A stretch of 64,000 nt of DNA, from the IMG/VR virus record IMGVR_UViG_3300023235_001725, one strand, 5' to 3'. The stretch's first letter is position 1. Every line of letters starts with the position of its first letter. This document shows positions 34,561 to 52,595 of the stretch, piece after piece. Source of the stretch: a virus. Lineage: Duplodnaviria > Caudoviricetes. The notes under the pieces were generated by a model. It saw nothing but the letters and a program-made list of their open reading frames with translations. It was not told the DNA's origin and ran no database searches. The translations under genes were made by a program, and so were the position numbers.

Positions 34561-36704
34561 TAAATTATTCCTTTACAGGATGAGGTGATAAACAGGGGTA
34601 TGATGTCAAACCAAGAAGTGCAAAATGTTGTGATTCCCTTACAGGATGAGATGATAAACAGGGGAGGGAGCAACTTCAAATACCTACAAGCTGTTGTGAT
34701 TCCCTTGCAGAATGAGATGATAAACAGGTCTAACGATGGAATAACCACCTTAGGCGAAGTTGTGATTCCCTTGCAGAATGAGATGATAAACAGGTTTAAA
34801 AGTTGAATGCGCCCCGTGCATCCCGTTGTGATTCCCTTGCAGAATGAGATGATAAACAGGTGAGCATTATTCTCTAAACAAAATTTATCTCGAATAAATT
34901 TCAGCCTATTTCAGATTAAACAACAACAATGGAAAATGAAATCGACCGTCTAAATTATCTTTTAACAGCTGTAAACACAGAGAACACATTGAAAGGGCTT
35001 GCACTTGCTGAAATCACCAAAATCTGCTGTCAAAAGTCAAAGAATTTCAGAGATATAAAGCAAATCGAAGACATCCTTCTTAAACTAAAAAATAATCAGC
35101 AGAAATTCCGTTTTAAACAGGAGATAAAATATTTCAAACAGATGGCAGGTAGTTGTGATTCCCTTGCAGAATGAGATGATAAACAGGCGGATTACGATTA
35201 GCCACAGCACCCAACAGTTGTGATTCCCTTGCAGAATGAGATGATAAACAGGCACAGCCAAATAAAGAATTACCAAGATGGTGTTGTGATTCCCTTGCAG
35301 AATGAGATGATAAACAGGTACCAAAACAGAAACATATTTGCTTGCCATGTTGTGATTCCCTTGCAGAATGAGATGATAAACAGGAGGGAATTGATACATC
35401 AGAAAGCCTTTATGTTGTGATTCCCTTGCAGAATGAGATGATAAACAGGGGCAATCGCCTTGAATAATTTTGCTGTTCAGTTGTGATTCCCTTGCAGAAT
35501 GAGATGATAAACAGGAGACTATAATGAATACCGATTTGAGGAAGAGTTGTGATTCCCTTGCAGAATGAGATGATAAACAAGGCAAAGGTCGGGAGCTTGC
35601 AAGCAGATATAGTTGTGATTCCCTTGCAGAATGAGATGATAAACAGGACAAAGGATAAGAAGGGCGTGTAGCTATTAGTTGTGATTCCCTTGCAGAATGA
35701 GATGATAAACAGGCAAAGCAACATCGAATGGAAGCAAGAGAGTAGTTGTGATTCCCTTGCAGAATGAGATGATAAACAGGTTCACCTTCGTTTCGAGGTG
35801 GTTTTTGTCTGTTGTGATTCCCTTGCAGAATGAGATGATAAACAGGGAAGCTTTTGGAACTAATTCCGCTAATCGAGTTGTGATTCCCTTGCAGAATGAG
35901 ATGATAAACAGGGGAATCGAATTCCTTTAGTACGTTCCTTTTGTTGTGATTCCCTTGCAGAATGAGATGATAAACAGGTAGATTAAATCTTAGTCTTCAA
36001 GACCAATCGTTGTGATTCCCTTGCAGAATGAGATGATAAACAGGGACGGTATGCATTCAAAATATCATTGCGCTGTTGTGATTCCCTTGCAGAATGAGAT
36101 GATAAACAGGTAGATTAAATCTTAGTCTTCAAGACCAATCGTTGTGATTCCCTTGCAGAATGAGATGATAAACAGGGACGGTATGCATTCAAAATATCAT
36201 TACGCTGTTGTGATTCCCTTGCAGAATGAGATGATAAACAGGCTACTTCAACTTGACCCAAAAAGACATACAGTTGTGATTCCCTTGCAGAATGAGATGA
36301 TAAACAGGTGCAGTCCAATTCATGATAAACGCATTAAAGTTGTGATTCCCTTGCAGAATGAGATGATAAACAGGTCAATTTCATGTTGGGTGCTGTGACT
36401 AAAGGTTGTGATTCCCTTGCAGAATGAGATGATAAACAGGTTTATTTAAACAATGCAAAAAACAAACCAAGTTGTGATTCCCTTGCAGAATGAGATGATA
36501 AACAGGTGGACCACTCAACCCAAATAACCCGCGCATGTTGTGATTCCCTTGCAGAATGAGATGATAAACAGGTGCACAAAGCTTTAATTATCAAAGGTTC
36601 ACGTTGTGATTCCCTTGCAGAATGAGATGATAAACAGGTGTTTGAAGTTGGCGAACTTGATTCTAAGAGTTGTGATTCCCTTGCAGAATGAGATGATAAA
36701 CAGG
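34561..36704. CRISPR. CRISPR array, 29 repeats of 36 bp, spacers 29-31 bp
   Basis: Repeat GTTGTGATTCCCTTGCAGAATGAGATGATAAACAGG; two leftmost repeats degenerate; one 291-bp interruption (34861-35151); 27 normal spacers; probably transcribed on minus strand with the cas operon. Confidence 0.98.
34929..35174 (+). CDS. Small ORF inside the CRISPR-array insertion
   Basis: MENEIDRLNYLLTAV...; A-rich leader; stop lies inside the next repeat, so the native 3' end is probably lost. Confidence 0.45.
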   Translation: MENEIDRLNYLLTAVNTENTLKGLALAEITKICCQKSKNFRDIKQIEDILLKLKNNQQKFRFKQEIKYFKQMAGSCDSLAE

Positions 36705-36790
36705 GTACCTGTGGCTAATGCGCTAATAAACAAGCAACAACCACATGTACTGGATGGAAAAAAGACGTCAAAGAGCGCTTGCACAAGGAG

Positions 36791-41907: not shown

Positions 41908-42513
41908 TTACCACTCTACTATGGATAATTGTTTTGGGTCCCGACCTATCTCTTTAATCTCCGCCAAACATTCCTTCATGGTTATTCCCACTTGGTCCTT
42001 CGAAGATTGAATCACACCATCTGGGTTTACGCAGCACTCGACCGCATTCTTGAATCCAAACTGGGGCTCATCCCACCTTAAAGTGCGCTCCACTTTTGGG
42101 TTGTACTTCCCTGCTACTTTATAATGCATAATGCAATCTAATGAACAAAAGAAACCATGCGCAAATCCTTTGGGGATGTACAGCTGTTTCTTATTGTCTC
42201 CAGACAATTCGAACTCTGCGTGCTGAGTAAATGTTTTTGAGTATGGGCGCAAGTCTACGATAAAATCCGTGACGCTACCCTGTATTACACTAACAAGCTT
42301 TGCTTGGGCATGTGGTGGGAGCTGGTAATGAAGCCCTCTTAGAGTGCCTCTGGTGGAGTGAGATATGTTATCTTGGATAAACACTGGGGCTGCTCCAGTA
42401 GCTAATGCAAACTTCTCGTGATTGAATGATTCAAAAAATGAGCCTCGTATATCTTTAAAAACTTTAGGTGTTATAATGTATACTCCTTCAAACTTTGTAT
42501 TCTCTATCTCCAT
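41908..42513 (-). CDS. rfbC: dTDP-4-dehydrorhamnose 3,5-epimerase
   Basis: KDIRGSFFESF, QDNISHS, LRGLHYQ, DLRPYS, IPKGFAHGF. Confidence 0.93.
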   Translation of the reverse strand: MEIENTKFEGVYIITPKVFKDIRGSFFESFNHEKFALATGAAPVFIQDNISHSTRGTLRGLHYQLPPHAQAKLVSVIQGSVTDFIVDLRPYSKTFTQHAEFELSGDNKKQLYIPKGFAHGFFCSLDCIMHYKVAGKYNPKVERTLRWDEPQFGFKNAVECCVNPDGVIQSSKDQVGITMKECLAEIKEIGRDPKQLSIVEW

Positions 42514-42517
42514 GTGT

Positions 42518-42775
42518 TCATTCTATGAGTTGCCATCCAAAATCTAGATAATCTTTTCTAGATATAATTAAGCGTTTTCTTGGGTGCTTGTCAAAAAACT
42601 TCTTGAGGGCGCCACACTTTTCATACTCTTCACCGTTCTCAAAAAAGAAAATGGATTCATTTATTAGAAAAGTGGGAATCAGTTTTCCAAGTGTTCCTGG
42701 ATGTGCACTTACTGCTTCAAAAAGTAAGTTGTACATTTTAATATCTACGCTGGTTATGTTTGTTCGACCTTTCAT
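42518..42775 (-). CDS. Hypothetical protein
   Basis: 85-aa ORF in operon order. Confidence 0.55.
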   Translation of the reverse strand: MKGRTNITSVDIKMYNLLFEAVSAHPGTLGKLIPTFLINESIFFFENGEEYEKCGALKKFFDKHPRKRLIISRKDYLDFGWQLIE

Positions 42776-42871: not shown

Positions 42872-43306
42872 CTACATACTGATGCCTCCGCTAATTGTCT
42901 TAGCATCAATGTCTCCACTTTTAGTTGATACCAAACCAGCAATGTCTCCTTTTACATCAACATCTCCAGAAGCTGTTTTAACGCTGCCTTCAATGTTTCC
43001 TCCGACTTCGATATCACCAGAAGCGCTTTGAACGTCTCCGCGAATATCTCCTCCTACTTCAATGTCTCCGCTTGCTGAGGTTATTCGCCCTGAGTTACCT
43101 GTGACGTTTAAATTTCCAAAGGCTCCTTGGACCAGCTCTACATCGCCTTCAACAGTAATATTCACGACCCGCTTGCTATCTCCAACATGAACTTGTTCTC
43201 CATCGATGTAAATTTCTCCGTCTCCACTAATATTAACAACTTTACCTTCGTACTTATTTGAATCAATTCTAAAAATTGCCATAAATAATTTAATTAATTT
43301 GTTCAT
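42872..43306 (-). CDS. Beta-helix repeat protein (DUF4097/adhesin-like)
   Basis: Repeated SASGDIEVGG units. Confidence 0.75.
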   Translation of the reverse strand: MNKLIKLFMAIFRIDSNKYEGKVVNISGDGEIYIDGEQVHVGDSKRVVNITVEGDVELVQGAFGNLNVTGNSGRITSASGDIEVGGDIRGDVQSASGDIEVGGNIEGSVKTASGDVDVKGDIAGLVSTKSGDIDAKTISGGISM

Positions 43307-52451: not shown

Positions 52452-52523
52452 TCTACAAATGTAATCAATTTTACAAATATAAAAACTGTTCGAAGGGCGG
52501 CCTTTTTCTATCTGTAATTCAAG

Positions 52524-52595
52524 AGGGGCGTAGGGGGTTCGAACCCCTGACGTACAGGGTTAAAGCCTGATGTTCTACCTCTGAACTAACGCCCC
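52524..52595 (-). tRNA. Putative ochre suppressor tRNA (anticodon TTA)
   Basis: GGGGCGT/ACGCCCC acceptor, U73, CAGG-CTTTAAC-CCTG with canonical 7-nt loop, T-loop TTCGAAC. Confidence 0.8.

Follow-up and report, generated by a model that had tools for sequence, protein, structure and literature searches.

A putative type I CRISPR module with a class 2-like repeat in a huge phage and its relatives

In Flavobacterium columnare, type VI-B CRISPR arrays that lack cas1 and cas2 have been shown experimentally to acquire spacers through the Cas1 of a type II-C system, and the VI-B and II-C repeats of this bacterium share their length and a leader-distal GTTGT motif (Hoikkala et al. 2021, PMC8092290). 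On mobile elements, huge phages encode CRISPR systems without Cas1, Cas2 or Cas4 whose arrays have host-like repeats (Al-Shayeb et al. 2020, PMC7162821), and plasmid type IV-A3 systems mirror host I-E repeats, as cited in PMC8092290. Here we describe a CRISPR array at positions 34561-36704 of a 64,000-nucleotide (nt) stretch of phage DNA (IMG/VR record IMGVR_UViG_3300023235_001725, hereafter the window), together with the cas genes beside it. The array consists of 29 regularly spaced repeats of 36 nt running from 36704 to 34561, the repeat being CCTGTTTATCATCTCATTCTGCAAGGGAATCACAAC on the minus strand and GTTGTGATTCCCTTGCAGAATGAGATGATAAACAGG on the plus strand. It is carried by a huge phage with 15 transfer RNA (tRNA) genes, a Lon-type protease and ligases in the window, which was found in 20 salt-lake metagenome runs and has a genome of about 447 kb (the longest contig of its Cas6 cluster is 446,956 bp), 86% of which lies outside the window. 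From the analyses below, the locus is probably a working type I guide array with a repeat derived from class 2 systems.

Compared with VI-B arrays, the window array has the same 36-nt repeats and 30-nt spacers, a repeat 50-69% identical to theirs, predicted transcription from the leader and a leader-distal ...CACAAC (GTTGT) end; like the VI-B loci of F. columnare, the loci of this phage family are without cas1 and cas2 yet have variable leader-end spacers. It differs in having no cas13b, its predicted effector being a class 1 set of Cas3, Cas7, Cas5 and Cas6, in a repeat whose closing GUUG/CAAC stem has given way to a Cas6-type hairpin, and in residing on a virus rather than on a chromosome bearing a II-C system. 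II-C arrays also combine 36-nt repeats and 30-nt spacers with the termini nnTGT...AATCACAAC; more than 60 such arrays have cas9, cas1 and cas2 beside them, whereas none of these genes turned up in the window or in those phage loci that were tested. Transcription of II-C arrays runs towards the leader and requires a trans-activating CRISPR RNA, while the phage array appears to be transcribed from its leader.

The proteins, in turn, resemble the I-F2 (I-Fv) Cascade of Shewanella putrefaciens CN-32 (PDB 5O6U, 5O7H, 9G44; PMC4937334), with which they share the absence of Cas8, a Cas7fv-like backbone and the gene order cas3-cas7-cas5-cas6; the best fold matches of the Cas5 candidate are chains of I-F2 Cascade structures. 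Judged from its sequences, the phage set appears to be a distant relative of I-F2, from which it departs in a Cas3 that is not fused to Cas2, a Cas6 that is TIGR01877/Cas6b-like and not Cas6f, the lack of cas1, and a 36/30 rather than 28/32 array format. As with IV-A3 plasmids and huge-phage arrays, interference genes and an array sit on a mobile element without accompanying Cas1 or Cas2, the spacers are directed against competing elements, and the repeat resembles that of an integrase-bearing system. Unlike in those cases, the mimicry crosses the class boundary, joining a class 1 effector to a class 2-type array, and is conserved across the family instead of matched to a single host.

Likeness of the repeat to VI-B and II-C repeats

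VI-B loci were gathered blind to their repeats, with the model NF038190 in 802 Bacteroidota and Flavobacteriales genomes, yielding nine loci with eight distinct direct repeats, all eight of which are 36 nt long and separated by 30-nt spacers. A preliminary description of the window had already called its array, with coordinates and format that proved exact, II/VI-B-like rather than I-F-like (28/32). The window repeat is identical to the eight VI-B repeats at 18-25 of 36 positions, while the best match of its shuffled versions (5000 shuffles) to the same eight averaged 13.9 and reached a maximum of 22. In all eight cases the better-matching orientation is the cas13b coding strand, so that transcribed strand is matched to transcribed strand. 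The closest of them, GTTGTCAAATCCCTAAATTTGCAAGGGAATCACAAC, comes from a Bernardetiaceae metagenome-assembled genome, where its array lies 150 nt upstream of cas13b (NF038190, 553 bits), and is identical at 25 of 36 positions, including 17 contiguous 3' nt. The repeat of a Cas13b locus in a 2.2-Mb Flavobacteriales genome, GTTGGGACTGCTCTCATTTTGAAGGGTATTCACAAC on the cas13b strand, agrees with the window repeat at 23 of 36 positions and, by hand count, at 20 of the last 26. It is nearly the same as what we take to be the Bergeyella Cas13b repeat, and it is on this near-identical VI-B repeat, rather than on the Bergeyella sequence itself, that the 21-of-26 match reported earlier is borne out.

For II-C arrays, one genome per species (185,579 species) was scanned for repeats ending in AATCACAAC with a 65-67-nt period, which returned at least 120 loci; about 70 of the matches listed are true 36/30 arrays, from many phyla, and the phage module stands beside none of the arrays among the matches listed. 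The large open reading frame (ORF) beside II-C-format arrays was Cas9 in all six cases tested, with cas1 and cas2 between ORF and array. Among the matches listed, the array closest to the phage repeat belongs to the same Bernardetiaceae genome and continues on a second of its contigs, beside cas13b. In the same genome, a Cas1 scoring 231 bits to PF01867 was also observed on a 2.4-kb contig; the Cas1 proteins beside II-C-format arrays score about 90-109 bits.

The termini nnTGT...ATCACAAC are common to phage, VI-B and II-C repeats, T3, G4 and T5 occurring in 98, 70 and 84% of 61 II-C 36-nt repeats and in 95, 75 and 65% of phage repeats. Over the interior positions 6-27, which are free of selection by the search, phage repeats agree with VI-B repeats at 9.6 of 22 positions against a null expectation of 5.7 (standard deviation 0.31), and with II-C repeats at 6.8 of 22 against 5.6 (standard deviation 0.23), slightly above chance. 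A grouping with type I repeats devoid of VI-B similarity, the outcome against which the preliminary description had set its claim, was thus not found. The class 1 arrays of the same genomes differ in format, with 30-nt repeats and 36-37-nt spacers or 28-29-nt repeats and 32-nt spacers. In its length, spacer length, termini and part of its interior, the window repeat appears to belong to the Bacteroidota VI-B/II-C repeat family, to which it also corresponds in polarity with respect to leader and transcription.

Predicted folds set the phage repeats apart from those of VI-B loci. For 15 of the 20 family repeats tested, a 5-bp hairpin is predicted at positions 16-20 and 26-30 (ATTCY/GGAAT), followed by single-stranded CACAAC; a 5-bp hairpin with a single-stranded tail is the usual layout of a Cas6 substrate. 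The eight VI-B repeats are predicted to pair along their whole length into a hairpin whose closing stem is GUUG/CAAC, or GCUG/CAGC for two of them, at -5.5 to -16.6 kcal/mol, whereas the window repeat begins with CCUG and its minimum-free-energy fold, at -2.0 kcal/mol, contains the internal 5-bp hairpin only. Some family members (L159, L162 and L167) keep both a GTTGG start and a CACAAC end. These folds point to a family that has kept the termini and both length rulers while its interior was rebuilt into a Cas6-type hairpin. Because the window repeat is without the closed Cas13b hairpin, the loading of host Cas13b that had been proposed earlier is unlikely.

The adjoining cas genes and their phage family

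Four genes on the strand of the array lie upstream of it (Table 1). The Cas6 product matches TIGR01877 (62 bits, above the cut-off), PF01881 and the PADLOC Cas6b model (106 bits), with no Cas6f model among its PADLOC matches, and 19 homologues show invariant H26 and H36 and a C-terminal glycine-rich loop. Cas3 is supported by TIGR01596, TIGR01587, PF18019, PF22590 and PADLOC Cas3fv (220 bits). The Cas7fv-like protein matches NF040577 with an expectation value (E) of 7e-13, below the curated cut-off, and the PDB chains 5o6u_C (Cas7fv) and 9g44_F, both with E 2e-6. The 293-residue product of the gene between cas7 and cas6 had no hidden Markov model or PDB sequence match; its AlphaFold model has a predicted local distance difference test score of 62, and at this low confidence places helices over residues 126-217 between beta-strand segments. 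Its top two Foldseek matches, 9g44_B (E 5e-3) and 5o6u_F (E 9e-3), with template modelling scores of about 0.3, are chains of I-F2/I-Fv Cascade structures, and with reservation we call it Cas5fv-like. Taken as a whole, the genes appear to form a minimal phage-borne type I system of Cas3, Cas7fv-like, candidate Cas5fv-like and Cas6 proteins, without Cas8 and without Cas1, Cas2 or Cas4.

The same combination recurs in other phages. Homologues of the window Cas6 that are 30-69% identical to it all lie within the same gene set and all on phage-like contigs, some of them metagenome contigs of 326-330 kb, in one of two layouts: cas3-cas7-cas5-cas6-array or cas7-cas5-cas6-array-cas3. The arrays of these relatives have 36-37-nt repeats, 30-nt spacers and a conserved ...AAGG(G/T)AATCACAAC end, the 3' part of the repeat being common to the family and its opening dozen bases variable. 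When 241 million metagenome records were scanned for ATTCYGYAAGGGAATCACAAC, 23 arrays came up; cas6 lies upstream, usually with cas5, cas7 and cas3, at all 13 loci with enough flank, and none of these 13 has cas13b, cas9 or a II-C cas1. In all, the 3' core of the repeat was seen solely beside the phage module, in more than 15 phage lineages, and neither the window nor any phage locus tested by tblastn showed a Cas13b. Among 50,697 cultured-phage records the locus had no near relative, and the exact window repeat was not found in IMG/VR. Since the core always stands beside cas6 and a Cas6-type hairpin is predicted, we take the window repeat as cognate to the phage's own cas3-cas7fv-cas5-cas6 module, whose substrate it would be, and not as a stray element. 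The earlier proposal that a class 2-style repeat serves a class 1 operon therefore holds, except that the repeat, being conserved across a family of phage modules, is not the borrowed oddity of one phage.

Four independent cues place the leader on the cas6 side and make the minus strand the one that is read. In the window as in five relatives, the degenerate repeats are the distal ones; related phages (L149, L151 and L153; L167 and L168) diverge at the cas6-proximal end and have their distal spacers in common; a TTCTTTGAC-type leader motif recurs 60-75 nt upstream of repeat 1 in eight lineages, namely the window and seven relatives; and the array lies downstream of the cas genes on the same strand. 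The motif may correspond to a promoter, although a sigma-70 scan of the leader called none.

Spacer targets and spacer capture

Alignment of contigs from four salt-lake runs to the array brought out some that match a single spacer and lie outside arrays. Probing IMG/VR with spacer 2, we then recovered three contigs of one small phage, circularly permuted copies of a genome of about 27.6 kb, and the records of this target phage are 3300023231_000082, 3300025661_000033 and 3300023240_000444. Protospacers of spacers 2, 4, 6 and 9 map to it (Table 1). Spacers 1, 3 and 16 and the first spacer of L149 had no IMG/VR target, no protospacer was found in the 50,697 cultured-phage records, and 247 family spacers (79 + 168 unique) compared with the fetched loci gave array self-matches only. 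Because at least four spacers match one rival of about 27.6 kb, we read the array as used in competition between phages. The matches show that the huge phage carries spacers against a co-occurring phage of the same salt lakes, at which the array would be aimed and which its module would cut.

The mapped protospacers, four in number, share a strand that is antisense to the local (structural) genes, which is not significant at four sites. The 5' flanks of five protospacers, including that of spacer 16 on a Logan contig, are TATTC, TGTTT, TTTAT, TATCA and TATCG, with T at -5 and -3 in all five and no uniformity at -2 and -1 (rough chance ~0.01, by our own estimate). A motif offset by two bases is odd for a type I protospacer adjacent motif (PAM) and ordinary for type II. 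The flanks thus hint at a PAM of type II rather than type I character, five protospacers being too few to decide.

Comparison of near-identical phages of the family revealed differences at the leader end of their arrays. In the numbering of family spacers, L149 begins 1-2-3-4..., L151 26-27-28-4... and L153 36-28..., and the older spacers are common to them. As leader-end spacers differ and distal ones are common, acquisition appears to be ongoing in the family. Across 322 kb of sequence around the module at 36 family loci, a phmmer search whose positive controls matched gave no Cas1 or Cas2, and none was found in four IMG/VR records of relatives (one of 141 kb; 4-20% complete). The absence of cas1 and cas2 noted in the preliminary description was also recovered in the window, where none was detected among 40 ORFs by PADLOC or by phmmer with eight Cas1/Cas2 queries. 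Family members thus appear to have an acquisition-gene-free module with leader-polarised spacer turnover; for the window phage itself, the absence of cas1 and cas2 applies to the 64 kb of the window. Leader-end turnover together with the lack of linked cas1 and cas2 in the family makes capture in trans plausible. It fits the borrowing of a host II-C adaptation machinery that had been suggested earlier, and no II-C locus was tied to the phage.

These observations can be combined into a working model. Minus-strand transcription of the array would start at a putative promoter in the short leader beside cas6, and Cas6 would cut each repeat at or next to the 5-bp hairpin, leaving a short 5' handle ending in CACAAC. 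The resulting CRISPR RNA (crRNA) would assemble with Cas7 and Cas5, and Cas3, judged by its families, would destroy matching DNA. The array itself would descend from a VI-B-type array and keep the features that a II-C-type Cas1-Cas2 integrase reads, so that a host class 2 (II-C) adaptation machine could insert new spacers in trans. Class 2 descent combined with capture in trans by a host II-C-type Cas1-Cas2 is in our analysis the most likely single explanation, although we hold it at less than even odds. About as tentatively, we propose that I-F2-like modules re-tooled a Cas13b-type array, keeping the 36-nt ruler, the 30-nt spacers and the termini while rebuilding the interior for their own Cas6, and outsourced spacer capture to the II-C Cas1-Cas2 of the host.

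Several points weigh against this model. The window phage could be linked to no II-C locus, and a search of 401 sampled Bacteroidota genomes did not detect the window Cas7, which bears on the origin of the protein module. The Cas5 assignment is weak, and Cas6 cleavage, the length of the handle and Cas3 activity are what we infer from the protein families and the repeat. T at -3 alone would suit a loose type I PAM, and the PAM evidence consists of five protospacers.

A first alternative shares the descent from VI-B/II-C repeats and assigns insertion to a distant Cas1-Cas2 of the phage's own, the array format reflecting the integrase that was captured. Unlinked phage cas1 and cas2 are possible insofar as 64 of about 447 kb were inspected and the IMG/VR relatives are fragmentary, and adaptation genes are present in certain phages, ICP1 among them (PMC7162821). 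However, neither the 36 family loci, nor the 141-kb record, nor the window yielded Cas1 or Cas2, and the CRISPR systems of huge phages are almost all without Cas1, Cas2 and Cas4 (PMC7162821); we therefore consider this alternative unlikely.

An improbable alternative is that there is no functional link at all, the class 2 likeness being baggage or convergence and the arrays unfed, with differences between them arising by deletion and recombination. Array recombination does occur in the form of internal spacer losses, a duplicated spacer pair (8-9/10-11) and the 291-nt insert described below, and three of the four mapped targets carry one to three mismatches. Yet deletion alone cannot give unique leader-end spacers and common distal ones in near-identical phages, spacer 2 matches a co-occurring phage perfectly, and both termini are conserved across lineages whose Cas6 proteins are 30-40% identical, while the 5' interior drifts. 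Finally, that a host Cas13b also, or instead, binds and processes the phage crRNA precursor and so targets the RNA of the rival phage is very unlikely: although the transcribed-strand identity of up to 25/36 to VI-B repeats, the GTTGG and CACAAC ends of three relatives and crRNAs antisense to the portal and other minus-strand genes would suit it, the window repeat lacks the closed hairpin of every VI-B repeat sampled, its core never stands beside cas13b, an intact Cas3-Cascade module with its own Cas6 adjoins the array, and a shared strand for all four protospacers would arise by chance about once in 8 and is likewise predicted by primed or biased acquisition.

Array anatomy, neighbouring genes and implications

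Between the 29 repeats are 27 spacers of 29-31 nt and one interruption of 291 nt, and the array can be divided accordingly into a leader-proximal block and a trailer block (Table 1). Of the repeat copies, 26 are identical; a single change distinguishes one more, and at the 34561 end the last two differ by two and nine changes, as is expected of degenerate terminal repeats. The interruption is spanned by contigs of three sequencing runs and is therefore not an assembly error; it has no relative among the fetched loci. A cryptic repeat proposed within it, at 35086-35121, was rejected, being identical to the repeat at only 15 of 36 positions. At 35943-36242, spacers 8-9 recur as spacers 10-11 with one base different (AGCGTAATG and AGCGCAATG), a two-spacer unit being duplicated in tandem. 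Because Logan contigs end at the 36-nt repeat, contig cover is lacking for most of the array. One contig links 34692 to 36669 through the repeat; a short-array variant was considered for it, and we read it instead as an assembly shortcut.

Table 1. Coordinates in the window of the array, the leader, the cas genes and the spacers with mapped targets
Feature	Position	Strand	Remarks
Trailer block, R25-R29 and spacers 25-28	34561..34860	-	R28 with 2 changes, R29 with 9 changes
291-nt array interruption	34861..35151		81-aa ORF (34929-35174, plus strand) reading into R24
Leader-proximal block, R1-R24 and spacers 1-23 (29-31 nt)	35152..36704	-	Identical repeat copies apart from R18 (1 change)
Spacer 16	35648..35677	-	Exact match to a contig of 1405 nt from a salt-lake run in which the phage is likewise present
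Spacer 9 (duplicate spacer 11 at 35979-36008)	36111..36140	-	3 mismatches; 682-aa ORF of the ~27.6-kb phage
Spacer 6	36309..36338	-	1 mismatch; same portal gene as spacer 2, 1119 nt from the spacer-2 target
Spacer 4	36441..36470	-	2 mismatches; ~27.6-kb phage, just upstream of a 181-aa ORF
Spacer 2	36573..36602	-	0 mismatches; portal gene of the ~27.6-kb phage
Leader, 86 nt from cas6 stop codon to R1	36705..36790	-	TTCTTTGAC-type motif; TTTGAC at 36767-36772
cas6, 238 aa	36791..37507	-	Non-Cas6f RAMP (repeat-associated mysterious protein) endoribonuclease predicted to cut the repeat
Cas5fv-like candidate, 293 aa	37504..38385	-	Position conserved in all relatives; weak fold matches
cas7fv-like backbone subunit, 360 aa	38382..39464	-	NF040577, PADLOC Cas7fv and PDB matches
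cas3, 775 aa	39507..41834	-	Predicted HD nuclease and helicase, HD domain first, no Cas2 fusion

Directly upstream of cas3 in the window lies rmlC (41908-42513), encoding a dTDP-4-dehydrorhamnose 3,5-epimerase, and in one relative (L001) a dTDP_sugar_isom gene is likewise found upstream of cas3, with a methyltransferase gene in between. Beyond rmlC, the window has a pair of small genes of 83-85 and 144 aa (42518-42775 and 42872-43306), which stands directly before cas3 in L127 and L128 (L127 2513-3218); a pair of the same sizes adjoins a solitary cas6, 30% identical, in the phage represented by L132 and L133 (L132 1727-2416). This stand-alone cas6 homologue, at 2495-3169 of L132 and 1111-1785 of L133, is on a phage contig and has no cas3, cas7 or cas5 beside it. 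Judged by gene size and order, the small genes may be an accessory pair or mere conserved synteny. PADLOC applied to the 40 window ORFs also gave one weak Csx3 match (E 1.9e-4), the others being to mad3/mad8, DolB and PDC-M37B models. Among the 15 phage tRNA genes, ARAGORN called one at 52523-52595 with the anticodon TTA, which would read the stop codon TAA.

What is new here, as judged from these comparisons, is the systematic coupling of a class 1 effector family with a family of repeats of apparent VI-B/II-C descent, in which conserved termini can be seen against a remodelled interior. We found no published description of a class 1 effector on a class 2-descended repeat, although one may exist. 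The repeat allows its parts to be assigned to machines, the termini and length rulers being class 2-like and the interior fitted to a class 1 processing enzyme. The module is compact, at about 5 kb and without Cas8, and an array and target pair from the same habitat is already known. Should these arrays indeed be fed by host II-C integrases, a virus would need no more than four genes of its own for adaptive immunity against rival viruses, adaptation would be a step at which CRISPR types can be exchanged more freely than their classification suggests, and the labour of immunity would be divided across the boundaries between class 1 and class 2 and between virus and host.

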